A DNA stretch of 64,000 bases from assembly GCA_965243495.1 (NCBI GenBank), contig CBDEUZ010000007.1:154450-218449 (forward strand), read 5' to 3'. The notes beneath the pieces are model-generated. The model ran no database searches and was not told where the DNA came from. It saw nothing but the letters and a program-made list of their open reading frames with translations. Shown one piece after another: positions 3,966-36,884 of the stretch (position 1 is its first letter; every line of letters begins with the position of its first letter). The DNA is from Dehalococcoidia bacterium. GTDB lineage: Bacteria > Chloroflexota > Dehalococcoidia > UBA6926. The translations under genes and the position numbers were made by a program.

Positions 3966-5189
3966 ATGACCCTCGACGATACCCTTTCCGAAGAGCTGCG
4001 CCTGCTGCGCCATTCCGTGCGTGAGCCTGTGCGCGATAAGGTCGCTCCCCGCGCATGGCAGATCGACCAGGATCGCGAATACCCGCAAGACATCTTTGAG
4101 ACCTTTCGCGACCAGGGCTTGTTCGCCTTGGCGCTCCCTGAGAACGAGGGTGGAACCGGCGCGGGAACAATGGGATTGGCCATCGCCGTTGAAGAGGTCG
4201 CGCGGGCCTGTGCCTCGTCGGCTCAGATGCTCATCCTCTCCGCCCTTGTCACGTGGCCCATGCGCCTGTTCGGCACGGACGCCATGCGGCAAAACGACGT
4301 CCGCGCCGTTGCGGACGGCAGCAAACGCGGCTCCTTCGCCCTGACGGAACCCAACGCCTCCTCGGATCTCGGCTCCATGGTCACTCGCGCCGAAAAAGCA
4401 GGCTCCGACTACATCATCAGCGGAGAAAAAGATTTCATCAGCGGCTCCCCTCAGGCTGATTTCTTCATCGTCTTTGCCGGAGCAGGCGATAACTCAGACA
4501 TGCGAGAAAGCATGACCGCGTTCCTCGTCGACGTGCCCCAGCCCGGCGTCATCTTTCTCCGGCGCGACGAGGGTATGGGTCTCAAGGGAATGCCCCACTG
4601 CGATTGGTCTTTTGACGGCTGCCGCACACCGGAGTCGCACGTGATCGGCGATATCGGACAGGGAGAGGAGATTGCCCGCCTGAGCATGAACGCCATCCAG
4701 CCGCTACTCGCCGCCCGCGGACTCGGCGCGGCGGAGGAGGCGCTGGCATTCGCGCGAGACTACGCCAACACGCGCCGCATCTACGACGGACTGCTCGCAG
4801 ACCTGCAGACCACCCAACTCCACCTCGCCGAAATGGCCGTCAACGTTGAAGCGACGCGTCTGCTGACGTACCAGGCGGCACGCATGGTGGATGAAAATCG
4901 ATTCCGTGACGAGGGTGATGCCGCTTACCTAAACGCCGCCAAGCTCATGTCCGCCCGCACTGCCGCCCACGCCACCGATCACGCCATGCAGGCCGTCGGC
5001 GGCCACGGCTACATGGAAGTCCACCCGCTTGAGCGTATGTATCGTGACGCCCGCCACCTGAGCCTCTACATGGGAACAAGCGAGGTGCTCAGCCTGCGTG
5101 TGGCCCGCGCAGTTCTGGACGGCTCGCTCGGCTACGGCCCGTCCGTCTCTCGCCAATCAACCGAGGAACGTTCGCGGCGGCAGGGGTAG
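3966..5189 (+). CDS. acyl-CoA dehydrogenase family protein
   Basis: 407-aa product with ACAD-like N-terminal, middle and C-terminal regions (..FALTEPNASSDLGSM.., ..GGHGYMEVHPLERMYRDAR..). Confidence 0.85.
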   Translation: MTLDDTLSEELRLLRHSVREPVRDKVAPRAWQIDQDREYPQDIFETFRDQGLFALALPENEGGTGAGTMGLAIAVEEVARACASSAQMLILSALVTWPMRLFGTDAMRQNDVRAVADGSKRGSFALTEPNASSDLGSMVTRAEKAGSDYIISGEKDFISGSPQADFFIVFAGAGDNSDMRESMTAFLVDVPQPGVIFLRRDEGMGLKGMPHCDWSFDGCRTPESHVIGDIGQGEEIARLSMNAIQPLLAARGLGAAEEALAFARDYANTRRIYDGLLADLQTTQLHLAEMAVNVEATRLLTYQAARMVDENRFRDEGDAAYLNAAKLMSARTAAHATDHAMQAVGGHGYMEVHPLERMYRDARHLSLYMGTSEVLSLRVARAVLDGSLGYGPSVSRQSTEERSRRQG

Positions 5190-5210: not shown

Positions 5211-6086
5211 ATGTCTGAATTCACGATGCATGTCGGCAACGCTGAAATCATCGCCGTGACGGACATGAACATCATCTATCCGAGGCCCCTGTCGGAACTA
5301 TTCCCTGCCGTGCCTGTGGAGGCATGGGACGACTATCGCGACGAATTTGCGGACACGTTCGCAGGCAACCACATCCGGCTGGAGATTGGGTGCTACGTCG
5401 TCCGCTCGCAGGGACAGACAATCCTCATTGACACCGGCTACGGCCCCGGCCCCATCGAGGGAGAGGATGGCCAGCTCATGGACAATCTCTCAGCCGCCGG
5501 CGTTGAAGCTGCGGATGTGGATGTTGTCTTCTTCTCGCACCTGCACCCCGATCACACCGGCTGGAACATGGTTTGGGGAGAAGAGATTCCCACTGAGCCG
5601 ACCTTTCCAAACGCGCGCTACGTCGTCCACGAGCTTGACCTCGAGCACTTCCGCAAGCCGGAAACGCAGGCGGCAATGTCGTTCCCCTTCATGCACCATG
5701 ATGTGGAGCCGCTGGACACGCTCGGCATACTCGACACGATCGATGAAGATACGGACCTCACGCCTGAGGTGAGAGCCGTCCACACGCCCGGCCACACCCC
5801 GGGTCACATGAGCGTCGTGGTTGAGTCCGGCGGCCAGGACGCCATCATCCAGGGCGATGTGTTCATCCACCCGGCGCAGGTTGTCGAGGACGACTGGAAT
5901 TGCATCTTTGACGTCGATTGGCCGTTGGCGACCGAGGGGCGTCGCAAGATGCTGGACGAGGCCGCTGACAAGGGTACGCCACTGATTTCATGCCACTTCC
6001 CCCTGCCCGGTTTCGGACGAATCGGACGCAGGGGAGGCAAGAGATACTACCAGGTCGGCCTGGACATCATGCCGGTCAACAACTAG
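5211..6086 (+). CDS. MBL-fold metallo-hydrolase
   Basis: HLHPDHTGW (HxHxDH) motif plus downstream His/Asp ligands. 291 aa. Confidence 0.8.
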   Translation: MSEFTMHVGNAEIIAVTDMNIIYPRPLSELFPAVPVEAWDDYRDEFADTFAGNHIRLEIGCYVVRSQGQTILIDTGYGPGPIEGEDGQLMDNLSAAGVEAADVDVVFFSHLHPDHTGWNMVWGEEIPTEPTFPNARYVVHELDLEHFRKPETQAAMSFPFMHHDVEPLDTLGILDTIDEDTDLTPEVRAVHTPGHTPGHMSVVVESGGQDAIIQGDVFIHPAQVVEDDWNCIFDVDWPLATEGRRKMLDEAADKGTPLISCHFPLPGFGRIGRRGGKRYYQVGLDIMPVNN

Positions 6087-6097
6087 GAGAAATCGAC

Positions 6098-7345
6098 ATG
6101 GCAACCGACGCAGAGCAACGGGTTCTCGACAGCATCAATACCGCCGAGATGACGAGTCTTGCGGAACAGCTTGTCAGCATTCCTAGCTTCAAGACGGAGG
6201 AGACGGAAGTCGCTCGTTTTCTGGAGGGATATTTCTCAGATCGCGGCTACGAAGTCCAGGTGCAGGAGGTGGAGCCCGGACGCCTTCAGACCATCGCTAT
6301 CCTTCGCGGTTCAGGCGGCGGCAAGTCCTTCATGCTCAACGGCCATACGGACATCGACCCACTCGCCATGGGCTGGAAACGCGATCCGTGGACGCCCAGC
6401 GTCGAGGATGACCGCATCTACGGCGCAGGCATCCGCAACATGAAGGCCGGCGTTGCCTCCATGATTACCGCGGCGGAGGCGCTGCGAACATCAGGCGTAG
6501 AACGGCGCGGCGACATCGTCATCGCGTGTGTCGTCGGCGAACTGCAGGGCGGCGTGGGGACCATCTACCTCTGTGAGAACGGCCCGCTTGCGGACATGGC
6601 CGTCATCCCGGAACCGCACGGCGCGAACAATATCCTGACCACCCACGCAGGCGTCGTCGAATTCGCAGTCCACATCATCGGCAACTCGCGTCACATCGTT
6701 CGCAAGGATGAAGCGGTGGACGCCATCGCCAACATGGCCAAGGCCGTCCCTGCCCTCAACAGCGTCGAATTCACCCACACACCGCGTGAAGACCTGCCCG
6801 GCCTCCCTCGCATCAACGTCGGTGCCATCATCGGCGGCCGCGGACGCGACTATGACCTCCGCGGCCCCAACTGGGTCGCGGACTTCTGCACCGCCCTTGT
6901 CGACGTGCGATTCCTGCCCGGCATGTCCTCGGAATCCGTCAGGGCTGACATCGAGCGCGCTCTGGACGCCATCAAGAGTGACGACCCCGATTTCAACTAT
7001 GAAATCGAGATGCCGCCCGACCCGAAATACCGCGTGTTCACGCGTGTGATGGAGCCGTTCGATCTACCGAAGGACGAGTACATCGTGGACGCCGTTTTGC
7101 GGAGTTTCCGTGCCGTCACGGGGCGCGAACCGGACGGATTCGGCACGGTGCTGCCCGGCTCCTACACCGGCGACGACACCACGCACCTCTGGCGCGCCGG
7201 CGTCTCGTGCCTCCTCTATGGCGCTGGTGGGGCATCTGAATCCGAGACCATCCCGGATGAATACGTCCGCATCCCTGACATGGACCAAGTCGCCCGCGTC
7301 CTCGCGCTCACCGCCCTGGACGTAATCAGCTTGCCCAGCGATTAG
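6098..7345 (+). CDS. M20 family metallopeptidase (ArgE/DapE-like deacylase)
   Basis: LVSIPSFKTEE..NGHTDIDP motifs. RBS AGGAG before ATG 6098. The ORF track start at 5990 overlaps the upstream gene. Confidence 0.8.
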   Translation: MATDAEQRVLDSINTAEMTSLAEQLVSIPSFKTEETEVARFLEGYFSDRGYEVQVQEVEPGRLQTIAILRGSGGGKSFMLNGHTDIDPLAMGWKRDPWTPSVEDDRIYGAGIRNMKAGVASMITAAEALRTSGVERRGDIVIACVVGELQGGVGTIYLCENGPLADMAVIPEPHGANNILTTHAGVVEFAVHIIGNSRHIVRKDEAVDAIANMAKAVPALNSVEFTHTPREDLPGLPRINVGAIIGGRGRDYDLRGPNWVADFCTALVDVRFLPGMSSESVRADIERALDAIKSDDPDFNYEIEMPPDPKYRVFTRVMEPFDLPKDEYIVDAVLRSFRAVTGREPDGFGTVLPGSYTGDDTTHLWRAGVSCLLYGAGGASESETIPDEYVRIPDMDQVARVLALTALDVISLPSD

Positions 7346-7754: not shown

Positions 7755-9308
7755 TCACATCATGCGGGCGTCATCAGGGCCCATGCCGGGCGGCGGGCTT
7801 TCCTCGTGTGGCCGGAGGTCCGGACGGACACGCATCCAGCGCGGCAACGGGGCGCGAACCGGACCTTCTTCGGTTGCCGTAGCAGCGGGCTTCCTCTCCG
7901 GTCGATGGCGCGGAGGCGGATACAGTTCTCGGATGTTAGACCAGATGGCACGGAGCTGCCCAACGTCCTCACGGGACGGCGGGATGCCGCCGTACCGCGC
8001 CCGCACGAACGAGTCCGTGAAGATGGCGATATCCTGCCCCACGAAGAGTCGACTGAGTTCCGGATGAAACTCCTCCGGCGTCTCCCACCCCTCGCGTGCC
8101 ACTCCGTGGTCGTCGGCCAGTGCTACCAGTCCCCGGTACGCGCCCAGCGCAACGGAAACTGGGTTGTTGGGGTCCAGATCAGTCGTAATGTCGGCATGCT
8201 TGGGTGAGCGTCGGAATCGGGCGGCCAGTGCTGACATCGCGGAAGAAAGGTCTTCAACAATCGTCGTCTCGCCCTGCAGCCGCTCGCGCTCTTCGCCCAT
8301 CTCTGCTTGCGAGCGCCGCCCCCGAAAACCGCTGAACAGCCGCCACAGGAACCACGCCACCCCAACGACGGCTGCCGTAACGGCCGCCCAGCCGAATATT
8401 CTGGACAGCCAATACAGCAGCCTGTTCTCTTCTTCGTCGCGTGTGAAGATCCGCTCAAAATCCGGCGCGGACGGCAGTTGAAGTTCGGGGCTCTCTCCCT
8501 CCGTGGCGAAGAGGCCTATCACCTGAAAGAACGCCCAGACGAACGCCTGGATGACTATCTCAAAGACCCAGCCGACAACAACCAACACGGGTATGAACAG
8601 CCGCCCTGCGAACCCGAATACCGTCGCTGCGACTCGCCCCAGTTCGCCCTCCGCCAGAACGGCCAGCAGAACACTGCCGATGAGGATGCCACCCACGGTA
8701 AGCGCCATCATGCGCGGCCAGTCTTTCAGTCCGGCGCTCTGCTCCGGGTCCATTGACGTGATATGGATCAACGCAAATGATGCGATACCCATCCCAAAGA
8801 AGAGGAACGTGGGAATCGGCGCGCCGGAATAGCTCTCGATTAAGACATCGATTACCACCCCCACCACCACAACGGCAACACCGATGCGGAAGGACTGCGC
8901 TAGTGAATTGACCCAAACGGATTCCTGTCCAAGATGTGTGCCGCGCCACCAGAAAACGCCGAGCATGATGCCGCCGACGATTGGGTGGCGGCCCTCCTGC
9001 CAGTCCTGCCAGAACCACAGCGGCCATGAAAAATCCCAGCCCACCTGCGGAAGCATGGCAATACCGAGATAGATGACGATTGCGCCGCCCCCGGCCACGA
9101 TACCCCGCGCCGCGGGCATGGTCGCGCCCGCGGGCACAATCCAGCGGGTGAGGATATACCCGGAAGCGGCGACGATCAAAGCCAGCCACACGGGCACCAG
9201 GCTCTCCCCCGCCCCGATCATCAGCAGAGCGAGAGCGCCGGCAATGGTGATCCACGCCACCTCCATCGTGAGGCGCGCCCCCTCCAATGCCAGCGGCGCC
9301 CATCTCAT
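7755..9308 (-). CDS. Polytopic membrane protein with C-terminal DUF4129-like domain (MoxR/DUF58-associated)
   Basis: Multiple TM helices, then a soluble C-terminal region (..ETPEEFHPELSRLF..DSFVRARYGG..). It sits as third gene of a MoxR-DUF58 operon; its start overlaps the DUF58 stop. Confidence 0.55.
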   Translation of the reverse strand: MRWAPLALEGARLTMEVAWITIAGALALLMIGAGESLVPVWLALIVAASGYILTRWIVPAGATMPAARGIVAGGGAIVIYLGIAMLPQVGWDFSWPLWFWQDWQEGRHPIVGGIMLGVFWWRGTHLGQESVWVNSLAQSFRIGVAVVVVGVVIDVLIESYSGAPIPTFLFFGMGIASFALIHITSMDPEQSAGLKDWPRMMALTVGGILIGSVLLAVLAEGELGRVAATVFGFAGRLFIPVLVVVGWVFEIVIQAFVWAFFQVIGLFATEGESPELQLPSAPDFERIFTRDEEENRLLYWLSRIFGWAAVTAAVVGVAWFLWRLFSGFRGRRSQAEMGEERERLQGETTIVEDLSSAMSALAARFRRSPKHADITTDLDPNNPVSVALGAYRGLVALADDHGVAREGWETPEEFHPELSRLFVGQDIAIFTDSFVRARYGGIPPSREDVGQLRAIWSNIRELYPPPRHRPERKPAATATEEGPVRAPLPRWMRVRPDLRPHEESPPPGMGPDDARMM

Positions 9309-10593: not shown

Positions 10594-11550
10594 CTAGCGG
10601 TCCGCGGCTACCTCTTCGGCCACGGCATCGTCCTCCGGCTGCCCGCTGATCGGCACGGGCACAGTGCGGAGAACGTCGTCCACTACATCAATGGACGTCA
10701 GACCGCGCAGCCGCGCCTGCGCATTCAGGATGACGCGATGGGTCAACACGTATGGCGCAAGACGCTTCACATCATCAGGTGTCACATAGTCCCGCCCCTG
10801 CTGCAGCGCCAATGCCTGCGAGGTGTGATGAAGCGCCAGCGACGCCCGCGGGCTCGCGCCGAGATCCAGTGACGGATGGTCGCGCGTCGAGTGAACGATA
10901 CCGATGATGTAGTCCTCCAGCGCCGGCTCCACCCGCGCGGTTGCAATCTGGTCCTGCATGGACAGAAGCTCCTGTGTCGAAAGAACCGGCCGCACCCGTT
11001 CAAGCGGGTCGTCTGCGTTGAACCGGTGAATCATCCGCGCCTCTTCCTCCGGCGAGGGCAAGCCGAGGCTTAGCCGCATCAGGAACCGATCCAACTGTGC
11101 TTCCGGCAGCGGGAATGTCCCCTCAAGTTCGATAGGATTCTGGGTGGCCATCACAAGGAACGGCGCGGGCAGCGGCAGGGTCTCCCCCTCAATAGTCACC
11201 TGCCCTTCCTGCATCGCCTCCAGCAGCGCCGACTGCGTCCGCGGCGTCGCGCGATTCACCTCATCGGCCAGCATGACCTGCGAGAATATCGGCCCGTTCC
11301 GTAGCTCGAAATCCCCGGACCGCTGATTGTAGTAGTTGATGCCCGTGATGTCCGCGGGCATCAGGTCCGGCGTGAACTGTACGCGGCTGAACGTGCATCC
11401 CAATGAGGCGGCCAACGCCTTGGCCAGCGTCGTCTTCCCGCTCCCCGGCACATCCTCAAAGAGCAGGTGGCCACGGCACAACAACGCTGTGATGGCCAAC
11501 TCGATGACGTTATCCTTGCCGACGATGACCGAGGCCACGCTCTCTGCCAC
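10594..11550 (-). CDS. MoxR family AAA+ ATPase
   Basis: GKDNVIELAITALLCRGHLLFEDVPGSGKTTLAKALA Walker A; whole-length MoxR signature. 318 aa. Confidence 0.9.
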   Translation of the reverse strand: MAESVASVIVGKDNVIELAITALLCRGHLLFEDVPGSGKTTLAKALAASLGCTFSRVQFTPDLMPADITGINYYNQRSGDFELRNGPIFSQVMLADEVNRATPRTQSALLEAMQEGQVTIEGETLPLPAPFLVMATQNPIELEGTFPLPEAQLDRFLMRLSLGLPSPEEEARMIHRFNADDPLERVRPVLSTQELLSMQDQIATARVEPALEDYIIGIVHSTRDHPSLDLGASPRASLALHHTSQALALQQGRDYVTPDDVKRLAPYVLTHRVILNAQARLRGLTSIDVVDDVLRTVPVPISGQPEDDAVAEEVAADR

Positions 11551-18612: not shown

Positions 18613-19311
18613 CTAGCTGACGCGCGTCCGCCTGCCCCGCGGATTCTGCCCCTCGTTGGAGTCGGAATCGGCGATGGCGGCAATGACTTCATCCGACGGG
18701 ATCGCGCCCTCGCGAAGCACTTGGGGCCGGCTGGTTGTCAGATCAACGATGGTAGACGGCTGACCGGCGGGCAGAGTTCCCTCACCCACCGCATAGTCCA
18801 GCCACGGGCCAAGCTCCTCCAGGACATCATCAAGTGAGCGGGCATCCGACGAGCCGGAGCGATTGGCGCTCGTGCCAATAACAGGCCGCCCAAATTCCTG
18901 GATCAGGTCGCGTGCGATTGGATGATCCGGTACGCGAACAGCGACGGTTGTCGCCCCGCCGCTCACGATATCCGGTAGGTCCGGCGAGCGCTTCACGACC
19001 ATCGTCAGCGCGCCCGGCCAATACCGATTCGCCAGCTTCCATGCGCTGTCAGGCAGGTCGATGGCTACTTTGTTGAGCTGCTCGGCGTCCGCAAGAAGTA
19101 CGGGCAGTCCCTGCCCATGGTCGCGGCCCTTTGCTCGATAAACCCGTTCGACCGCCTCGGCATTAAAAGCGTCAGCGCCAAGCGCGAAAAGGGTATCCGT
19201 CGGAAAGCACACAATCCCGCCAACCCGAAGCATCACGACTGCTGCGCGAATCTGAAGCTCTGGGTCGGTTGCCTTGACTTCTGCCTCGTCTACGACGGTT
19301 TGATCGGTCAC
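18613..19311 (-). CDS. tsaC: L-threonylcarbamoyladenylate synthase (TsaC/YrdC/Sua5 family)
   Basis: YrdC fold motifs (..CFPTDTLFALGADAFN..AVERVYRAKGR..LPVLL.., ..GTSANRSG..). GTG start at 19311 is preceded by AAGGAG; the longest ORF reaches 19482. Confidence 0.75.
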   Translation of the reverse strand: MTDQTVVDEAEVKATDPELQIRAAVVMLRVGGIVCFPTDTLFALGADAFNAEAVERVYRAKGRDHGQGLPVLLADAEQLNKVAIDLPDSAWKLANRYWPGALTMVVKRSPDLPDIVSGGATTVAVRVPDHPIARDLIQEFGRPVIGTSANRSGSSDARSLDDVLEELGPWLDYAVGEGTLPAGQPSTIVDLTTSRPQVLREGAIPSDEVIAAIADSDSNEGQNPRGRRTRVS

Positions 19312-19441
19312 GTTGTGACTCCTTGACCAAGTATAGCACCGGTTAGTAGGCTGAGCGTCAATGGGGACGCTGTGATGGTCACGGCGTCGGCGTGGCGCGG
19401 GAGTCGGTTCCGCGAACGCCTCTGGGGGACTGGCAGCGCAC

Positions 19442-21112
19442 GTGAGCAATGAGCAACCTGGGGTGAGCCACCGCATCGCCACGGGCGATGATCGCGAAAT
19501 CGCGACCTACCTTGAGATTGCCCAGCACGCCGAGGCGCGCCACCCTGACGCAGACACGGAACAGCCCCCTGCCCGTGACCTCATCATCGTCATTGATTTC
19601 GGCTCCCAGTACAGCCGTCTTATCGCCCGACGCATCCGTGAACTGAACGTCTATTGCGAGGTGGTGCCTGCCACGACGCCATGGACAGAAATCCAACGGC
19701 TGCGTCCAAAGGGATTCATCTTCTCCGGTGGTCCGGCAAGTGTCTATGAGCCGGACGCGCCCATGGCTCCTGCAGAGGTCTATGAGGCGGGCGTGCCGAT
19801 CCTCGGCATCTGCTACGGAATGCAGCTCCTTGCCCACCAGCTTGGCGGAGCCGTCGAGAACTCCACCCACCGCGAATACGGCCACTCCGTGCTTCACCGC
19901 GCCGCCACGATTACCGATCCGCTCCTCGAAGACCTGCCGCCAACCATGCCCGTTTGGATGAGCCACGGCGACCACGTGACGACCCCTCCGGCGGGTTTCC
20001 AGACGCTGGCATTCACGGACAACTCCCCCATCGCGGCAATGGCCAATGAGTCCGGCTACTACGGCATCCAATTCCACCCAGAAGTCGTGCACACGCCCAA
20101 CGGCAAGCAGCTGCTTGAGAATTTTCTGTTCAGGGTCTGCAAGTGCGAGCCGACGTGGACCGCGGCCAACTTCGTCGAGGCCACGGTGGCGCACATCCAC
20201 GAGCAGGTGGGAGACGGCCACGCAATCTGCGCCCTCTCCGGCGGGGTCGATTCAGCAGTAGCCGCCGCCCTCGTCCACCGCGCCATCGGAGACCGGCTCA
20301 CCTGCATCTTCGTCAATAACGGCCTCCTTCGTAAGGATGAACCGGAACGACTGCGCGAGACGTTCGAGCGCAACCTCCACATGAATCTCATCGTCAGCGA
20401 GTCCACGGACAGGTTTCTTGACCGCCTTGAGGGAATCACCGACCCGGAAACAAAGCGAAAGACCATCGGCGAGGAGTTCATCTGGGTGTTCGAGGAGGAG
20501 GCGGGCAAGCTCGGCGAGGTCGATTTCCTCGTGCAGGGCACCACCTACCCTGATGTCATCGAGAGCCTGACCGCGGACAACACCGCCTCCGCCGTCATCA
20601 AGACCCACCACAACGTCGGCGGCCTGCCGGAGGAGATGCGACTGGAACTGGTTGAGCCGCTGCGCTACCTCTTTAAGGACGAGGTTCGCGCTGTCGGCTC
20701 TGAGTTGGGTCTGCCCGATGAAATCGTCTGGCGGCAGCCGTTCCCCGGACCGGGCCTGGCCATCCGCATCCTCGGCGAGGTGACACGCGAAGGATTGCAT
20801 ACGCTCCGCGAGGCCGACGCCATCGTCAACGAGGAGATCCGCAACGCCAACCTGACACGGGAGCTCTGGCAGTCGTTTGCCGTCCTGACCGCCTCCCGAA
20901 CCGTCGGCGTGCAGGGCGACTTTCGGACGTATGGAAACGTCATCGCCATCCGCGCCGTCACCTCTGAAGACGCCATGACCGCCGATTGGGCGCGCCTGCC
21001 CTACGACCTGCTGGCCCGTATATCTTCGCGAATCGCCAACGAGGCCCCAAACGTCAACCGCGTCGTCTACGACATCACCAGCAAACCCCCGGGAACAATA
21101 GAGTGGGAATAG
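19442..21112 (+). CDS. guaA: GMP synthase (glutamine-hydrolysing)
   Basis: Class I GATase domain ([11 protein letters not shown], catalytic Cys) plus ATP-pyrophosphatase domain ([14 protein letters not shown]-loop) and C-terminal dimerisation domain. There is a roughly 45-aa N-terminal extension if ATG 19442 is used. Confidence 0.9.
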
Positions 21113-21117
21113 CTGCT

Positions 21118-21165
21118 CCCTACTGTCATTCTGAGCGCAGCGAAGAATCTAAAGACTCATTGCCC
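21118..21165 (+). repeat. Single module C copy (gtcattctgagcgcagcgaagaatctaaagactcattg)
   Basis: Exact family C consensus between guaA and purD. Confidence 0.8.
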
Positions 21166-21199
21166 AACCACCTCTGCCCCCTCCTGATATGGTGACCCC

Positions 21200-23077
21200 A
21201 TGTTAAAAACAATCCTGCTGCGCGTGACCCTCATGGCGCTTGCCGTCGTGTTCATGCTCATCGGCGTCGTCACCGCCCTTTTCCCGCGACCCGTCATCGA
21301 ACTCCTGGATCTCGGGCAGGTAAATGTCATCCTCCTCGGGATGTGGGGCGCTATGCTCGTTCTGCTCGGCGTCGGCGCATTCCTTGCAAACCGTGACCCC
21401 ATACGACACATCCTTTGGCTGCGGCTCACAATTGGATTCCTCTTTGGCATCGCGCTCTACGCCGGACTCGTGTACTGGGGCGGCGGCATCTCCCGGGACA
21501 CGGCAATCGTCCTAGCCGTCATCGGCATCGTCCCCGGCGTCGGGTTGCTTATCCTCTTCCCGCGCTCCCCGCGTTTCGTTTCCACCCGTGTTCGCTCCCC
21601 CGACGGTGTGCTCTTCACGGACGCGGACGACGGCGGCCTCTTCGTGCGCCGGAGCGGCGGCAGGTTCAACCCCTATGTCATCCGCCTCCCTCGCGAGCCC
21701 GCCATGCCGGACACGCATCACCGCCTCCACCCGACTACGGTCACAAACCCCTCCCGCGTCATGGTCGTCGGCGGCGGCGCGCGAGAACACGCCATCGCCG
21801 TCAAACTCCGGCAGAGCGCCGGACTCGAAGAACTCTACATGGCCCCAGGCAACGGCGGCACGGCATCGATCGCCGAGAATCTCCCCATATCAGCCACCGA
21901 CACCGAAGCCATCGTGCAGGCGGCACAGGAACGAAACGTCGAGCTTGTCATCATCGGCCCCGAAGCTCCGCTGGCCCTCGGCCTCGGCGACGCCGTCCGT
22001 GAGGCCGGTATCCTCTGCCTCGGCCCCTCACAAGAGGCGGCGCGCATTGAGTGGAGCAAGTCTTTCGCCAAGCAGGTCATGGACGACGCCGGAGTTCCCA
22101 CCGCCGCATGGACGAAATTTGACAACTACTCACAGGCCACGGAGTACGTCCGCGCGCACCCCGCTCCCCACGTCATCAAGGCGGACGGCCTCACAGCCGG
22201 AAAGGGCGTTGCCGTCTGCGAAACGGAACAGGATGCCGTCACATTCCTGCACCACGTCATGCGACTCCGCGACTTCGGCGAGTCAGGAGATTCCGTGGTG
22301 ATCGAGGAGACACTGTCGGGCGTCGAACTCTCCGTCTTTGCGTTCTGCGACGGCGAGCAGATGCTGCTCGTTCCCCCCGCCTGCGACTACAAGCGCATCT
22401 ACGACGACGATGAAGGTCCCAACACCGGCGGCATGGGATCATATAGCCCGCCGGAGTTCGTCACGGACAAACTCATGGCGGACATCCGTGACACCATCAT
22501 CCGCCCCGTCCTGCGCCGCATGGTTGAACTCGGCACGCCTTACAGCGGCATCCTTTACGCCGGACTCATGCTCACAGACGATGGCCCCAAGGTCATTGAA
22601 TTCAACTCCCGCATGGGCGACCCCGAGGCTCAGGTCGTCCTGCCCCGTATCACGTCCGATTTCCTGCAGCTCGCCGCCGCAACGGCCGCAGGCAAACTTG
22701 AAGACGTGCATCTTGAGTGGACGCCCCAGCCCGCCGTCGGCATCGCCATCGCTTCCGAGGGCTACCCCGGCGACTACCCAACCGGCCTGGAAATCACCGG
22801 ACTCAACACCCTTGACTACGATGCAATTGCCTTCCATGCCGGCACCCGCCTCGAACCCGCCCCTTCCGCTCACCCTGAGCCTGTCGAAGGGCCCAAACTC
22901 GTAACCGCCGGAGGCCGTGTCCTCACCATCACCGCGCTCGGCGACACGATGGAGCAGGCACGCGAGAAAGCCTACGCGAACGCCGCCCGCGTCCAGTTCC
23001 AGGGCGCGCACTACCGCAAAGACATCGCCCTCCGCGCCGTACCCGCTAAGCCCACCGAAGAACACCCTTCACCCTGA
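21200..23077 (+). CDS. purD: Phosphoribosylamine--glycine ligase with in-frame N-terminal 4-TM membrane extension
   Basis: Residues from MVVGGGAREHAIAV (ATG 21761) to the end are a complete PurD (438 aa). Upstream, the same frame is open back to ATG 21200 and encodes about 120 aa of clear TM helices with coding-like GC3. There is no stop between the two parts. A family B repeat fragment is embedded at 22855-22895 (..AHPEPVEG..). Confidence 0.8.
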   Translation: MLKTILLRVTLMALAVVFMLIGVVTALFPRPVIELLDLGQVNVILLGMWGAMLVLLGVGAFLANRDPIRHILWLRLTIGFLFGIALYAGLVYWGGGISRDTAIVLAVIGIVPGVGLLILFPRSPRFVSTRVRSPDGVLFTDADDGGLFVRRSGGRFNPYVIRLPREPAMPDTHHRLHPTTVTNPSRVMVVGGGAREHAIAVKLRQSAGLEELYMAPGNGGTASIAENLPISATDTEAIVQAAQERNVELVIIGPEAPLALGLGDAVREAGILCLGPSQEAARIEWSKSFAKQVMDDAGVPTAAWTKFDNYSQATEYVRAHPAPHVIKADGLTAGKGVAVCETEQDAVTFLHHVMRLRDFGESGDSVVIEETLSGVELSVFAFCDGEQMLLVPPACDYKRIYDDDEGPNTGGMGSYSPPEFVTDKLMADIRDTIIRPVLRRMVELGTPYSGILYAGLMLTDDGPKVIEFNSRMGDPEAQVVLPRITSDFLQLAAATAAGKLEDVHLEWTPQPAVGIAIASEGYPGDYPTGLEITGLNTLDYDAIAFHAGTRLEPAPSAHPEPVEGPKLVTAGGRVLTITALGDTMEQAREKAYANAARVQFQGAHYRKDIALRAVPAKPTEEHPSP

Positions 23078-23079
23078 AC

Positions 23080-23345
23080 CCATTTGAAAAGTCCCCGTTC
23101 GCCCTGAGCGTAGTCGAAGGGGGCTCTCGAACGGGGAGCCGCTCCCACTCTTACTTCGTCATTCCCGCGAAAGCGGGAATCCAGTACGGCGCGCAGCGCC
23201 GTCTAACTTGTCATTCCGAGCGTAGCCGAGGAATCTAAAGCCTCAATTGACCGCCAAAGCCGGAACGCGGCGGACAAACGCCACAAACCAACCTCACCTG
23301 AACGCGAACTTTGGCCGTAGGCACTGCCTACCCCACCCCCACTAA
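23080..23345. repeat. Mosaic repeat array (B, A, C, E)
   Basis: B at 23095-23140, A at 23155-23205, C at 23208-23250, E (..cgcgaactttggccgtaggcactgcctaccc) at 23255-23335. Confidence 0.85.
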
Positions 23346-23388
23346 TGCCATAATCTCTGTAGGTGCATCACCAAAGGGGGTAACACGA

Positions 23389-23850
23389 ATGGCCGCAATC
23401 GTTGGCATTCTCATGGGCAGCCGCTCCGATGAAGAGCTCGTTCAACAGACGCAGAAAGTCCTTGAGGACCTCGGCATCGAGTACGAGACAAACGTCCACT
23501 CCGCGCACCGCACCCCGGACAAGGTCGCCGAATACGTCCGAACCGCCCAGGATCGCGGCATCGATGTCCTCATCGGCGTCGCAGGCGCAGCAGCGCACCT
23601 ACCGGGTGTTATGTCTGCCTACACCACCCTGCCCGTCATCGGCGTCCCCGCCACCGGCAGCGCCCTCAACGGCCTCGACGCCCTCTACTCCATCGTCCAG
23701 ATGCCGCCCGGCGTCCCCGTCGCATCCGTCGCCGTCGGCTCAATGGGCGCGCGCAACGCCGCCTACCTAGCCGCGTCCATCCTCGCCCTCAAACATCCTC
23801 ACGTCCGTGAAAGCTATGAAGCGTTCCGCCGAAAGCAGTCAGAGGGCTAA
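23389..23850 (+). CDS. purE: 5-(carboxyamino)imidazole ribonucleotide mutase
   Basis: Classic PurE sequence (IVGILMGSRSD..HRTP..AGAAAHLPGVMSAYTTLPVIGVP). RBS AAGGGGG before ATG 23389. Confidence 0.9.
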   Translation: MAAIVGILMGSRSDEELVQQTQKVLEDLGIEYETNVHSAHRTPDKVAEYVRTAQDRGIDVLIGVAGAAAHLPGVMSAYTTLPVIGVPATGSALNGLDALYSIVQMPPGVPVASVAVGSMGARNAAYLAASILALKHPHVRESYEAFRRKQSEG

Positions 23851-23928
23851 ATCAACAGTCGGACCCGAAGAAGGAACAACCCAAGAGTCCCTCTCCCACT
23901 GAGAGAGGGTTAGGGTGAGGGCAACAGA

Positions 23929-25218
23929 ATGATCGACCGCTACGCCCGGGACGCCATGAAGGCCGTCTGGCAGGACCAATTCAAGTTCGAAACATGGCTT
24001 GAGGTGGAGCTTGCCGTCTGCAGGGCGTGGGCGGAGCATGGCGAGATTCCTGCCGAGGACATTCCCCTGCTGGAACGCGCCACTTTTGACATGCCCCACT
24101 GGCAAGAGGCGTTCAAGACGACGCGCCATGACGTGACCGCGTTTCTCTCCTCCATCTCCCGCGATCTCGGCCCGGAGAGCCGCCACATCCACAAGGGCCT
24201 CACGTCCAACGACGTGTGGGACACGGCCACCGCGCTGCAGCTCCGCGCCGCCGCCAACATCCTCCTTGAGGACATCGACAAGCTCGAAGAAGCCATCACC
24301 CGCCGCGCCGTCGAGCACAAGAACACCCTGATGATGGGGCGAACACACGGCGTCCACGCGGAGCCCACCACCCTTGGCCTCAAACTTGCCCTCTGGGTGG
24401 AAGAGACGCGCCGCATGAAGCAGCGACTTGAGCAGGCCGCGCGCGGTGTCAGCGTCGGCAAGTTCTCGGGCGCAGTCGGCACCCACGCCACCCTGCCGCC
24501 CGAGGTCGAGAAAACGGCCTGCCGATTCCTGGGGTTGGAAGTTGAAAATATCTCGAGCCAGATCGTGCCGCGTGATCGCCACGCCGAGTTCGTCACAGCG
24601 CTCGCCCTCTGTGCCGCCTCCCTTGAGAAATTCGCCACGGAGATCCGCAGCCTCCAGCGCACGGAGGTGCTTGAGCTGGAAGAACCGTTCCATGCAGGTC
24701 AGACCGGCTCATCCGCCATGCCCCACAAGCGCAACCCCGAGTTGTCCGAGCGCATCTGCGGTCTTGCCCGGCTCATCCGCGGCCATGCTGTCACCGCTCT
24801 CGAGAACGTCGCTCTCTGGCATGAGCGGGATATCTCCCACTCCTCCGCCGAGCGCATCATCCTGCCCGACGCCACCATGGCCCTCGACTACATCCTCGAC
24901 CTCGCCACCTATGTCATCGGCGGCATGGTTGTGTACCCCGACAACATGATGGCGAACGTAGAAAAGACACATGGCCTCGTCTTTTCCCAGCGCGTCATGC
25001 TCGCACTCATCGACAAAGGTCTCACCCGTGACGAGGCCTACAAGGTCACCCAGACCGCCTCCATGGAGAGTTGGAACACCGGCCAGGACTTCCGCGACCT
25101 CCTCCGCCAGAACGCGGATGTCGCCCAACACCTCACCCCGAACGAACTCGAATCCCTCTTCGACTACACCTACTACACCCGCTACGTAGACCAGTCCTTC
25201 GAGAGGATTGGGCTGTAA
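23929..25218 (+). CDS. purB: adenylosuccinate lyase
   Basis: Full-length PurB (MIDRYARDAMKAVWQDQFKFETWLEVELAV..., fumarate-lyase signature GSSAMPHKRNP). Confidence 0.9.
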   Translation: MIDRYARDAMKAVWQDQFKFETWLEVELAVCRAWAEHGEIPAEDIPLLERATFDMPHWQEAFKTTRHDVTAFLSSISRDLGPESRHIHKGLTSNDVWDTATALQLRAAANILLEDIDKLEEAITRRAVEHKNTLMMGRTHGVHAEPTTLGLKLALWVEETRRMKQRLEQAARGVSVGKFSGAVGTHATLPPEVEKTACRFLGLEVENISSQIVPRDRHAEFVTALALCAASLEKFATEIRSLQRTEVLELEEPFHAGQTGSSAMPHKRNPELSERICGLARLIRGHAVTALENVALWHERDISHSSAERIILPDATMALDYILDLATYVIGGMVVYPDNMMANVEKTHGLVFSQRVMLALIDKGLTRDEAYKVTQTASMESWNTGQDFRDLLRQNADVAQHLTPNELESLFDYTYYTRYVDQSFERIGL

Positions 25219-25323
25219 TTGCCCATGCCCACCACCCGCATGTCATTCTGAGCGTAGCGAAGAATCCAAAGACTCGCCCTGCATGTCGACGGGACTCTCA
25301 CACGAACGCCAGGAGCGCTGACC

Positions 25324-25506
25324 ATGCCCGCCAGAGAGGATAATGGTGGCCACGCGCCCACCCGTGGTGAAAAACGCCAGGACAAAAGGCGCCGAGCCCG
25401 CAAGATGGGCGTCAGCGGCAAGAGCTACGTCAACGCCGTCCGCAACGCCATGCTCAAACGCAAAGCCGAGATCGAAGTCCGCGACCGTGAGAATAAATCC
25501 CAATAG
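25324..25506 (+). CDS. Hypothetical small basic protein (60 aa)
   Basis: ORF in a short lower-GC patch after a module C repeat; product is Lys/Arg-rich. Weak evidence and no recognisable family. Confidence 0.25.
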   Translation: MPAREDNGGHAPTRGEKRQDKRRRARKMGVSGKSYVNAVRNAMLKRKAEIEVRDRENKSQ

Positions 25507-32099: not shown

Positions 32100-33371
32100 A
32101 TGAAAAAGACGGTCAGCGATATCGACGTGTCCGGCGCGCGATGCCTCGTGCGCGTCGATTTCAACGTTCCGTTCGAACCCGGCACAACCACAATCTCCGA
32201 CGACTCCCGCATCCGCGCCGCCCTACCAACCATCAACTACCTTCGTGAGCGGGGCGCGCGCGTCATCCTCGCAACCCATGTGGGCAGACCAAAGGGCATC
32301 GACGACGGCTTGCGCGTAGCGCCCATGGCCGCACGGCTCTCCGAACTCCTCTCATCGCCCGTCACTGTCGCGCCCGACTCCATCGGCGAGGAAACCGAAA
32401 AGCTCGCCGCCGCGCTCGGCCCCGGTGATGTCCTCTTCCTTGAAAACACGAGGTTCCACCCCGAAGAGGAGAAGAACGCTCCTGATCACTCAGCCGCCCT
32501 CGCCCGTCTTGCGGACTTCTATGTGAACGATGCCTTTGGGTCCGCCCACCGCGCCCACGCCTCCACGGAGGGCGTCGCCCATCTCCTGCCCGCCGTCGCG
32601 GGGTTCCTCCTTGATAAGGAGATCCGCATGTTGGGCGGCATCCTTGAATCGCCCCGCCGTCCGCTGGCAACGCTCATGGGCGGCGCAAAGGTCGGCGACA
32701 AGATGGCCGTCATGGAGCGACTCATCGAGAGCTCGGACATGCTCATCGTCGGCGGTGGCATGGCCGCCGCGTTCCTGGAAGCCCGTGGAATGCGAACCGG
32801 TAAGAGCCTGCTCGAAGCGGACGGCCCGCAGATGGCAGGGCGAATCGAAAGCGCCGCAAGGGCCCGAGGCATCCAACTGCTGATTCCGACGGACGTGATC
32901 GTGGCAACCGAACTCTCCGCCGATGCCCCCGTGTCCGCCGTAAGCAGCGACGCCATCCCTGCAGATGGAATGCTCCTGGACATCGGCCCCGAGACGCGCG
33001 ATACCTACACGCGCGCCTTGCGACTCTGCCAGACAGTACTTTGGAACGGCCCGATGGGTGTATTCGAGTACGACCAATTCGCCGGAGGCACACGCGCTAT
33101 CGCCGAATGCCTCGCCCAACACGCCGGCGCTCCCACCTCCCTTCGTCATTCCCGCGAAAGCGGGAATCCAGTGCGGCGCGCAGCGCCGCCACCTTCTCAC
33201 GCCCCACACGGCGCAACCGTCGTCGTTGGCGGCGGCTCGACGGCTGAGGCCGTCGACGCCCTCGGATATGCCGACGCCATGACCCATGTGTCCACCGGCG
33301 GCGGCGCGGCCCTCGAATTCCTTGAAGGCCGTGTCCTCCCCGGCATCGCCGCCCTCCAGGACATGGACTGA
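32100..33371 (+). CDS. pgk: phosphoglycerate kinase carrying an in-frame repeat-element insertion
   Basis: Full-length PGK (..VRVDFNVP.., ..VWNGPMGVFE.., ..GGGSTAEAV..STGGGAALEFLEG..). Between ..ECLAQHAGA and TVVVGGG, 27 extra residues (PTSLRHSRESGNPVRRAAPPPSHAPHG) are encoded by an exact copy of repeat module A at 33143-33189. Confidence 0.9.
   Translation: MKKTVSDIDVSGARCLVRVDFNVPFEPGTTTISDDSRIRAALPTINYLRERGARVILATHVGRPKGIDDGLRVAPMAARLSELLSSPVTVAPDSIGEETEKLAAALGPGDVLFLENTRFHPEEEKNAPDHSAALARLADFYVNDAFGSAHRAHASTEGVAHLLPAVAGFLLDKEIRMLGGILESPRRPLATLMGGAKVGDKMAVMERLIESSDMLIVGGGMAAAFLEARGMRTGKSLLEADGPQMAGRIESAARARGIQLLIPTDVIVATELSADAPVSAVSSDAIPADGMLLDIGPETRDTYTRALRLCQTVLWNGPMGVFEYDQFAGGTRAIAECLAQHAGAPTSLRHSRESGNPVRRAAPPPSHAPHGATVVVGGGSTAEAVDALGYADAMTHVSTGGGAALEFLEGRVLPGIAALQDMD
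33143..33189 (+). repeat. Module A copy inside the pgk coding frame
   Basis: cgtcattcccgcgaaagcgggaatccagtgcggcgcgcagcgccgcc is identical to the intergenic copy at 32035-32080. Total inserted length keeps the frame open. Confidence 0.9.
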
Positions 33372-35240: not shown

Positions 35241-36884
35241 ATGACGACCGACTGGAAAAACAAACTCTACTTCGGCGATAACCTCCCCATCATGCGGGAG
35301 CACATCCCGGACGAGTCCGTCGATCTCATCTACCTCGATCCGCCCTTCAACTCCAACGCCACCTACAACGTCCTCTTCCGCGAGCACGATTCCTCGGAGT
35401 CCGCCGCCCAGATTCAGGCATTCGACGATACCTGGCACTGGAGCACGGACGCCGAATGGCATTACCAGCAGGTCGTCACCACCGGCCCGCGAAAACTCGC
35501 GGACATGCTTGGGGCCATGCGCACATTCCTCGGCCAGAACGACATGATGGCCTACCTCACCATGATGGCCCCGCGCATGGTGGAACTGCACCGCGTCCTC
35601 AAGCCCACCGGCAGCATCTACCTCCATTGCGACCCCACCGCCAGCCACTACCTCAAGCTCCTCATGGACGCCGTGTTCGGGCCGACAAGGTTCAGGAACG
35701 AAATCACGTGGAAACGCTCTCATCCCAAGGGATTAGCATTCACTCGCTTCGCATCAAACCATGACGTGATTTTGGTGTACGGCTCCACCAGCGATGCCAC
35801 CTGGAATGCAATGTATACGGAGAACCCTCGCGCCCACGAGCAATACAACCTCATTGAAGAAGGCACAGGACGTAGATACCAGTTGACCAGTCTATTGAAT
35901 CCAAATCCAGATCGCCCAAACCTGACATACGAATTCAAGGGCGTAACGAGAGTATGGCGATGGACAAAAGAACGCATGGAACAAGCTGATAAAGACGGGC
36001 TAATCGTTGTTCCGCGTGAGGGACAAGGGGTTCCGAGACTGAAGAGGTATCTTGATAAACAGGAAGGGATTCCAGTAGGCGACACTTGGGATGACATCCC
36101 AATTGCGGCTGGCAAAGAGCGCCTCGGCTATCCCACCCAGAAGCCCGAGGCCCTGCTTGAACGCATCATCTCCGCCTCCAGCAACGAGGGCGATGTCATC
36201 CTCGACCCCTTCTGCGGCTGCGGCACCGCCGTCGCCGTCGCGGAACGCCTGAACCGCAAGTGGATCGGCATCGACGTCACCCATCTCGCCATCTCCCTCA
36301 TGCGCAGCCGCCTGCGTGACTCGTTCGGCGATGACCTGTCCGACTATGAGGTCGTCGGCTCCCCCGCGGACGCGGAGAGCGCCCGCGCACTGTCGCTTGA
36401 GGGCGGCAACACCGGCCGATACCAGTTCGAATACTGGGCGCTCGGCCTGGTTGAGGCCCGCCCTGCCCGCGACATGAAGAGGGGCGCGGACGCCGGTATC
36501 GACGGCTACATCAACTTCTTTGACGACAACTCCGGCAAAGCCAAGTCCGTCATCGTCCAGGTCAAGAGCGGTAACGTGGGCCGCAACGTCATCGCCACCC
36601 TGAAGGGCGACATGGAACGCGAAAACGCCGAAATGTCTCTGCTGATCACCTTGCGTCCGCCCACCAAACCGATGCTTGATGAGGCTGCGTCCGCCGGATT
36701 CTACACGCCGGAGGCCTACCCGGACCGACAATTTCCCCGCGTCCAGATCGCCACCATTGAGGACATCCTCAACGGCAACGGCCCCGCGATACCCCAACTC
36801 GGCCTCTCCCAACCCCCGACCTTCCGCCGCGCCCCCCGCCGCCGCCGAACAGACTCCACATCCCCCCGCATGAACATCGGCTAG
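35241..36884 (+). CDS. Beta-class N6-adenine/N4-cytosine DNA methyltransferase fused to a C-terminal Mrr-like (PD-(D/E)xK) nuclease-type domain
   Basis: Motif IV LIYLDPPFNS near the N-terminus, motif I/X ..GYPTQKPEALLERII..VILDPFCGCGTAV.. after a central target-recognition region (beta-class order). The C-terminal approximately 190 aa carry ..DAGIDGYINFF..SVIVQVKSGNVGRNVIATLKG..LLITL.., matching the Mrr catalytic-domain pattern. The central TRD segment (about 35700-36110) is about 48% GC while both flanks are about 65%. Confidence 0.8.
   Translation: MTTDWKNKLYFGDNLPIMREHIPDESVDLIYLDPPFNSNATYNVLFREHDSSESAAQIQAFDDTWHWSTDAEWHYQQVVTTGPRKLADMLGAMRTFLGQNDMMAYLTMMAPRMVELHRVLKPTGSIYLHCDPTASHYLKLLMDAVFGPTRFRNEITWKRSHPKGLAFTRFASNHDVILVYGSTSDATWNAMYTENPRAHEQYNLIEEGTGRRYQLTSLLNPNPDRPNLTYEFKGVTRVWRWTKERMEQADKDGLIVVPREGQGVPRLKRYLDKQEGIPVGDTWDDIPIAAGKERLGYPTQKPEALLERIISASSNEGDVILDPFCGCGTAVAVAERLNRKWIGIDVTHLAISLMRSRLRDSFGDDLSDYEVVGSPADAESARALSLEGGNTGRYQFEYWALGLVEARPARDMKRGADAGIDGYINFFDDNSGKAKSVIVQVKSGNVGRNVIATLKGDMERENAEMSLLITLRPPTKPMLDEAASAGFYTPEAYPDRQFPRVQIATIEDILNGNGPAIPQLGLSQPPTFRRAPRRRRTDSTSPRMNIG

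Follow-up and report, generated by a model that had tools for sequence, protein, structure and literature searches.

Within a 64,000-nucleotide stretch of DNA from a Dehalococcoidia bacterium (contig CBDEUZ010000007.1, positions 154,450 to 218,449; hereafter the window), we examined a single open reading frame (ORF) that appears to join a membrane module with four transmembrane (TM) helices to a complete phosphoribosylamine-glycine ligase (PurD). We consider it likely, with a probability of roughly 0.8, that this is one real gene whose product is a PurD that is covalently anchored on the cytoplasmic side of the membrane. The features of the locus are listed below, with amino acid (aa) positions referring to the 625-residue product.

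21191 to 21195, + strand: Shine-Dalgarno (SD)-like GGTGA, 4 nt before the fusion start codon (read directly).
21200 to 23077, + strand: single ORF comprising the four-TM module, cytoplasmic beta segment, linker and PurD (ORF and profile searches).
21224 to 21280, + strand: predicted TM helix 1 (aa 9 to 27), after a cytoplasmic N-terminus MLKTILLR with 2 K/R (hydropathy and charge count; AlphaFold helix 2 to 27).
21323 to 21385, + strand: predicted TM helix 2 (aa 42 to 62), Gly-rich, with invariant G47, G50, G57 and G59 (hydropathy, AlphaFold, alignments).
21386 to 21424, + strand: predicted cytoplasmic loop 2 (aa 63 to 75), ANRDPIRHILWLR, the best-conserved motif of the membrane module (alignments).
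21425 to 21475, + strand: predicted TM helix 3 (aa 76 to 92; hydropathy, AlphaFold).
21503 to 21556, + strand: predicted TM helix 4 (aa 102 to 119; hydropathy, AlphaFold).
21557 to 21697, + strand: conserved, predicted cytoplasmic segment (aa 120 to 166), FPRSPRFVSTRVRSPDGVLFTDADDGGLFVRR..G.FNPYVIRLPRE, forming a predicted small four-strand beta meander (alignment, dN/dS of 0.02 to 0.15, AlphaFold).
21698 to 21748, + strand: variable Pro/His/Thr-rich linker (aa 167 to 183; alignment, substitution rates, low model confidence).
21749 to 23077, + strand: complete PurD with GARS_N, GARS_A (ATP-grasp) and GARS_C domains (TIGR00877, Pfam and PDB matches).
21761 to 21763, + strand: internal ATG, codon 188, most likely just a Met in strand beta1 (codon comparison, no SD).
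22874 to 22891, + strand: repeat copy CCTGAGCCTGTCGAAGGG inside the PurD C domain, in-frame as ..HPEPVEG.., an insertion of about 11 to 13 aa (one of 12 copies in the window).

The ORF opens at the first start codon past an in-frame stop and encodes 625 aa in one continuous frame, bearing out the preliminary description of this DNA, which had the frame open from ATG 21200 without a stop before PurD. That description had also called the third-position GC upstream of PurD coding-like, and this is borne out as well. The GC contents at codon positions 1, 2 and 3 are 0.67, 0.44 and 0.80 in the region from 21200 to 21760, compared to 0.66, 0.44 and 0.79 in guaA and 0.70, 0.46 and 0.77 in the PurD part; the region is indistinguishable from these two and from purB, and its two alternative frames hold 4 and 1 stops. 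The GGTGA ahead of ATG 21200 presumably pairs with the GAUCACC part of the 16S rRNA 3′ end, and other genes of the window likewise carry G-rich SDs. A (G)GTGA(C/G)CC(C/A)ATG sequence is found at the orthologous start in 10 of the 21 listed related fused loci (L003 to L007, L009, L010, L013, L017 and L018), with a GGTAAC variant ahead of it in four further ones (L008, L011, L014 and L015).

The gene order Sua5/guaA/fusion/purE/purB is conserved among relatives. In the window, guaA and the fusion ORF lie 87 nt apart, and the spacer includes a repeat element. In one fused species (L019, around position 6001), the stop of guaA and the start codon of the fusion share nucleotides (GAATAATG), which suggests translational coupling to guaA there. 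No riboswitch or other RNA element was found between guaA and the ORF, as a scan of the whole window at Rfam gathering thresholds returned only three tRNAs located elsewhere. Nor did a promoter and terminator consensus scan of positions 19000 to 25500 yield anything exceeding shuffle expectation.

The C-terminal 440 residues correspond to a complete PurD. TIGR00877 matches with 493.7 bits (cutoff 288; E value of 4e-148), aa 186 to 614 spanning positions 2 to 424 of the 425-position profile. All three Pfam domains are present in order and above gathering thresholds, i.e., PF02844 (118.5 bits, threshold 29.5), PF01071 (242.8 bits, threshold 27), and PF02843 (95.0 bits, threshold 34.8). The best solved relative is the Geobacillus kaustophilus PurD (2yrw_A; 3e-117). 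PDB PurDs align from aa 182 to 186, and no PDB chain covers aa 1 to 181. In the alignment with unfused PurDs, residues G191, G193, R195, E196, and H197 are invariant, as are E467, F468, N469, R471, G473, D474, P475, and E476, and these positions align with 2yrw. They fall within GGxREHA and EFNxRxGDPE, which we take to be the PurD signature motifs with residues assigned to ligand binding. Judged from its sequence, the PurD half is a full family member and is presumably active in converting phosphoribosylamine, glycine, and ATP to glycinamide ribonucleotide. The preliminary description was thus right to report a complete PurD but not to start it at ATG 21761, given that TIGR00877 aligns from aa 186 and the start of unfused PurDs corresponds to codon 184. 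The repeat in the C domain (22868 to 22900) translates as ..PSAHPEPVEGP.. and is missing from most fused orthologs; in the alignment, only the window protein and two others (P0008 and P0009) carry the insertion, and the match to 2yrw has a gap of 11 residues there.

Residues 1 to 119 include four hydrophobic segments whose 19-residue Kyte-Doolittle peaks reach 1.7 to 2.6, compared to a maximum of 1.3 in the PurD part, and they are followed by a 68-aa non-hydrophobic stretch (aa 120 to 187). This agrees with the roughly 120 aa of hydrophobic helices and 65-aa linker described earlier. AlphaFold places helices at residues 2 to 27, 43 to 65, 67/71 to 93, and 99 to 119, with a predicted local distance difference test (pLDDT) score of about 80 to 90 in both the full-length and the N-terminal-only models. 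When the N-terminal part was modeled alone, strands were also predicted at 126 to 133, 136 to 141, 147 to 150, and 156 to 158 with pLDDT values of 66 to 79. The linker (aa 167 to 183) is below 50 in the full-length model, and its sequence and length vary among fused proteins.

The counts of K+R and D+E residues are 2 and 0 at the N-terminus, 1 and 2 in loop 1, 3 and 1 in loop 2, 1 and 1 in loop 3, and 11 and 6 after TM4. Since K/R residues are concentrated at the N-terminus, in loop 2, and after TM4, the positive-inside rule would place both ends of the module in the cytoplasm. The helices and this charge distribution together give the predicted topology of an integral multi-pass membrane protein. 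We infer an N-in/C-in arrangement with the N-terminus, the linker, and PurD on the cytoplasmic side; an ATP-dependent enzyme requires such a location. The residues that are invariant in fused and standalone members (the latter being separate membrane proteins of relatives, described below) comprise A63, P67, R69, H70, L72, W73, and L74 in loop 2, P121, P124, and R125 just after TM4, and G136, T140, D143, G145, G146, L147, F148, and P158 in the cytoplasmic segment. The invariant positions of loop 2, of the stretch after TM4, and of the beta segment would therefore form a conserved surface on the cytoplasmic side. Within the helices of the module, the glycines G22, G47, G50, G57, and G59 are invariant, and no conserved polar residues line its membrane core. 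A module conserved in this way is more readily seen as a platform for docking or regulation than as a channel.

Taken as a mechanism, translation would begin at ATG 21200 and the four helices would cross the membrane so that the N-terminus lies in the cytoplasm, as does the C-terminal end of helix 4. The conserved segment (aa 120 to 166) and a flexible linker of about 17 residues would then lead into a complete PurD hanging from the module, with the enzyme presumably active while tethered.

The fusion is not confined to the window. Searching with the full-length protein gave 17 clusters at 90% identity (P0008 to P0024) that are 60 to 90% identical to it, 605 to 630 aa long, and aligned over 96 to 100% coverage, all with the N-terminal extension; the next matches were ordinary PurDs of 417 to 453 aa. 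A profile of the N-terminal part was then scanned against one genome per GTDB species and recovered 24 loci, all from metagenome-assembled genomes (MAGs) of Dehalococcoidia/Chloroflexota. In 20 GTDB species representatives (L003 to L022), the N-terminus is 48 to 93% identical to that of the window and the frame is open through the end of PurD. Scanning of JGI metagenome contigs added one locus (L029), likewise fused; with this locus and L002, which are also open, the fusion is present in 22 of the 22 recovered loci of this PurD clade, the fused ORFs of orthologous loci ranging from 605 to 646 aa. Several of them lie on closed long-read chromosomes of 1.6 to 2.4 Mb (OZ244736, OZ242019, OY762213, and others).

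To estimate selection along the protein, ratios of nonsynonymous to synonymous substitution rates (dN/dS) were calculated per segment by the Nei-Gojobori method between the window and the 16 closest loci (listed as L003 to L016 and L018), at a dS of about 0.5 to 0.8. Values were 0.05 to 0.17 for aa 1 to 122, 0.03 to 0.15 for aa 123 to 166, and 0.06 to 0.11 for the PurD part. Only the linker (aa 167 to 183) is relaxed, with dN/dS values of at least 1 in distant pairs. The low ratios of the N-terminal part indicate that it is translated in the fused frame and constrained nearly as tightly as PurD. Together with its protein identity of 48 to 93% across species, they set it far apart from a chance open frame.

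These data bear directly on whether the fusion might be an artefact, i.e., a missing base or lost stop that joined two genes in the assembly, or a decaying membrane pseudogene read into purD. Because the two genes are separate in distant relatives with a mere 4-nt overlap, a single indel could in principle join them. However, the same fusion recurs at 22 independent loci from differing projects and sequencing technologies, closed chromosomes included, and the membrane part evolves under the low dN/dS given above. Moreover, a shorter linker stands in place of the acidic tail of the separate proteins, and both the purD start codon and its SD are gone, which amounts to multiple fixed changes. The 22 open loci and the dN/dS values rule out that the assembly is in error or that a stop was lost recently, and we consider artefact or decay, taken together, extremely improbable. 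The first of the two options offered by the preliminary description, a genuine membrane-anchored PurD, is instead supported by the clade-wide fusion, by purifying selection on both halves, and by an internal ATG that is not conserved and lacks a ribosome-binding site.

Regarding this internal ATG, 22 sequences were compared, that of the window among them; 17 have ATG at codon 188, but the codon reads CTG in L003, L006, and L019 and TTG in L007 and L002. In L003 and L006, the sole nearby in-frame start is a GTG at codon 190, within the GGGAREHA loop. The 30 nt ahead of codon 188 are pyrimidine-rich and C-rich (..cacaaacccctcccgcgtc ATG) and contain no SD, whereas five unfused relatives carry GAGGA or AGAGGA right before the purD start. 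In addition, P184 of the window protein (NPSRVMVVG), encoded by CCC at 21749, is the residue that lines up with the start Met of the closest unfused PurDs (MTRVLLVG). Unfused PurDs have Leu at the residue matching M188, so a Met or Leu at this position is best explained as a hydrophobic core residue of beta1 rather than as a relic start. ATG 21761 was therefore rejected as the main PurD start, the codon being not conserved and without an SD and the unfused start corresponding to codon 184.

A softer version of the same idea holds that two products are made, with a soluble PurD arising also from ATG 21761 or from cleavage in the linker as the working enzyme and the fusion serving mainly for co-expression. 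The prevalence of ATG at codon 188 would allow this, and the variable, predicted disordered linker (aa 167 to 183) would be accessible to proteases. Yet the species with CTG at this codon (in two of which only the GTG is nearby), the missing SD at the very place where unfused relatives have one, and the core role of the residue all speak against internal initiation, and a start at M188 would cost the first three to four residues of strand beta1 relative to all PurDs. We regard the two-product explanation as rather unlikely.

Several points nonetheless weigh against the reading as a tethered PurD. An ATG at codon 188 is kept in most species, so a minor soluble isoform is possible, and release of PurD by cleavage in the disordered linker is possible as well. 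A second, unfused purD was looked for only within the 64-kb window and among the 120 best PurD matches; the window has none, and no match of this kind comes from the same chromosomes. The full-length AlphaFold model falls below a pLDDT of 50 over residues 123 to 180, so that no docking of the membrane module on PurD can be read from it. Finally, none of the PurD substrates (phosphoribosylamine, glycine, and ATP) is known to be membrane-bound, which leaves tethering without an obvious benefit.

The preliminary description had proposed looking for a separate small membrane protein gene in front of purD in relatives, and such a gene was found. In the four most distant loci of the scan (L023 to L026) and in L027, the contig of the closest unfused PurD (P0025; 59% identity), a homologous membrane gene lies separately and directly upstream of purD. 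A stop codon between the two parts, which had been put forward as a sign against the fusion, therefore occurs only in distant relatives, with 36 to 39% identity in the membrane part, and does not refute it. The two genes meet as follows.

L024: membrane gene 5911 to 6729, purD ATG at 6726, overlap ATGA.
L023: membrane gene 5911 to 6759, purD GTG at 6756, overlap GTGA.
L025: membrane gene 5911 to 6759, purD TTG at 6756, overlap TTGA.
L026: membrane gene ending at 2148, purD GTG at 2145, overlap GTGA.
L027: membrane gene 4405 to 5004, purD ATG at 5001, overlap ATGA.

The stop/start overlap is thus 4 nt in all five outgroup loci, and in four of them the membrane gene comes right after guaA, matching the order of the window. 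In L027, a 143-aa gene with a lipoprotein-like N-terminus (..LASTALAC..; 3977 to 4408) lies between guaA and the membrane gene, which it overlaps by 4 nt; it has no Pfam match.

In a neighbor-joining tree of the PurD parts, calculated without bootstrap so that its support is qualitative, all fused proteins fall in one clade with the unfused loci as neighbors. This grouping points to one fusion event in a gene pair that was translationally coupled. With separate, overlapping genes in the outgroups and fusion throughout the clade, the stop loss is ancient and fixed. The most parsimonious course starts from a coupled membrane gene and purD. In the clade's ancestor the tail then became shorter and both the stop and the start signal disappeared, a single time, and the fusion was passed down to the whole clade. 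The other option raised in the preliminary description, an upstream membrane protein gene that lost its stop, hence holds as evolutionary history but not as an assembly indel or a pseudogene. As in a Rosetta-stone-type fusion, the parts are separate and adjacent in relatives, the fused frame is conserved and under purifying selection, and the fused proteins are monophyletic in this tree.

The ancestral layout, which used termination and re-initiation at an ATGA/GTGA overlap, also makes it conceivable that recoding persists in the fused genes, a programmed frameshift or termination in the linker freeing the membrane protein and coupled re-initiation yielding PurD, much as the ancestral pair did. 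The linker, however, varies in length and sequence and contains no conserved slippery sequence or nucleotide stretch, the zero frame is under purifying selection across the junction, where NPSRV is kept, there is no conserved restart codon, and no RNA family matches anywhere in the region. We therefore judge recoding very improbable.

The N-terminal 187 aa belong to no Pfam or NCBIfam family and have no specific PDB fold match. The window N-terminus itself does not match the BphX-like family PF06139 at an E value of 1 or below (gathering threshold of 24.7 bits), but standalone members give collinear sub-threshold matches to it, the best being P0128 (22.4 bits; E value of 1.4e-4) and the others scoring 12.8 to 18.3 bits. 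DUF4345 (PF14248) is matched only by a distant relative (P0136) at 17.6 bits, below the gathering threshold of 26.5. An exhaustive profile search of 1.84 billion representatives returned only seven clusters of the PurD-linked subfamily at E values below 1e-30, along with about 80 weak matches to 130-aa four-TM proteins that have the ARDPxRHxxW loop and LYPR end in common with it and are without the beta segment. One protein (P0130; 177 aa) is closely related to the four-TM module (1e-32), but a Rhomboid-like segment (PF01694; 1.4e-6) takes the place of the beta segment. This may mean that the module is joined to further membrane proteins as well, or that the contig is a chimera or cut short.

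The standalone PurD-adjacent proteins (P0003 to P0007, P0128, and P0129; L023 to L027) share the four-TM core at 36 to 40% identity, together with the loop 2 motif DPIRHILWLR and the segment PRxPRxV...G.L.TD.D.GGLF. They occupy the same position upstream of purD but are separate proteins of 158 to 282 aa, and most of them have a long disordered tail, acidic or Pro-rich, at the C-terminus, where the window clade has about 17 aa continuous with PurD. Small four-TM proteins of the BphX-like/DUF4345 type have a similar size and four-helix layout, but the likeness says nothing on mechanism. Four-helix membrane bundles of the DoxX or NACHO/TMEM35A-like type (9h9e_C) were also among the systems compared.

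PurD is regarded as a soluble cytosolic enzyme. Compared to canonical PurDs (2yrw; E. coli 1gso), which the window protein resembles in its N, ATP-grasp A, and C domains over the full profile length, it adds a 183-residue N-terminal extension with four TM helices that is absent from solved PurDs and has about 11 aa of repeat origin inserted in its C domain. In the eukaryotic trifunctional GART protein (PurD-PurM-PurN), PurD is likewise one domain of a fusion, and its PurD domain (2qk4_A) matches at 1.2e-111. In GART, soluble enzymes acting in the same pathway are attached C-terminal to PurD, whereas the partner in the window is a non-enzymatic-looking membrane module N-terminal to it. No description of a membrane-anchored PurD was found in searches limited to open-access full texts, and nothing relevant on BphX or DUF4345 turned up there either.

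By Rosetta-stone logic, the conserved adjacency and translational coupling of the separate genes point to an interaction of the module with PurD before the fusion. We infer that the membrane protein and PurD already cooperated at that stage, probably in contact via loop 2 and the beta segment. It is possible, although we advance this only tentatively, that the four-TM protein is a dedicated, so far unrecognized PurD partner that either recruits the enzyme to the membrane, as a bacterial counterpart of the purinosome, or gates it by a membrane or envelope signal or an imported substrate, and that the fusion made this partnership obligatory in sponge- and coral-associated Dehalococcoidia. In the recruitment version, neighboring purine enzymes would perhaps also be drawn to the membrane. 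The fused clade consists of small-genome Dehalococcoidia (1.6 to 2.4 Mb), sponge-derived MAGs included, of a group described as sponge- and coral-associated; two fused MAG series, APA_bin and SB0661_bin, were recovered from Aplysina aerophoba and Ircinia ramosa, both of them sponges (PMC11706023).

The repeat found in the PurD C domain belongs to one of three short dispersed repeats, all copies of which lie on the + strand within the first 37 kb of the window. CCTGAGCYTGTCGAAGGG occurs in 12 copies (2740, 2918, 7455, 7559, 12532, 22874, 28367, 31726, 31976, 33653, 33967, and 36932), ATTCCCGCGAAAGCGGGAATCC in nine (7504, 12600, 23161, 28187, 32027, 33148, 33430, 33710, and 36981), and CATTCCGAGCGYAGCCGAGGAATC in three (12704, 23212, and 33525), with a variant near 21128. 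The spacer between purD and purE (23078 to 23310) contains ATTCCCGCGAAAGCGGGAATCC at 23161 and CATTCCGAGCGYAGCCGAGGAATC at 23212, as well as a variant of CCTGAGCYTGTCGAAGGG seen by eye near 23098 to 23125. The peptide HPEPVEG also forms the end of some orthologous PurDs (P0010 and L004). The phosphoglycerate kinase (PGK) gene (32100 to 33371) carries an in-frame repeat at 33120 to 33210 as an insertion of about 30 aa, GAPTSLRHSRESGNPVRRAAPPPSHAPHGA.

Elsewhere in the window, a 547-aa ORF (35241 to 36884, + strand) joins an N6/N4 DNA methylase domain (PF01555; 3.2e-42) to an Mrr-type restriction endonuclease domain at its C-terminus (PF04471; 1.3e-8), and a 517-aa DUF4129-containing ORF (7755 to 9308, − strand) lies near a MoxR-type AAA_3 ATPase gene (10594 to 11550, − strand; PF07726, 5e-63). 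The remaining neighborhood is housekeeping, with genes for a DLH hydrolase, a polyprenyl synthase, Sua5, guaA, purE, purB, an oligopeptide ABC ATPase, PGK, and phosphoglycerate mutase.

The ORF of the window is best read as a known enzyme in a new, membrane-tethered form that is restricted to a narrow clade. For annotation, this means that the 625-aa gene model is correct and should not be trimmed to the internal ATG. purD is linked twice to the membrane protein, as coupled genes in several Dehalococcoidia/Chloroflexota lineages and as a fusion in one clade, and this double linkage provides strong comparative evidence for a joint action of the module and PurD. It offers a first functional handle on an uncharacterized family of small four-TM proteins and raises the question of whether purine synthesis is spatially organized at the membrane in small-genome, host-associated bacteria.

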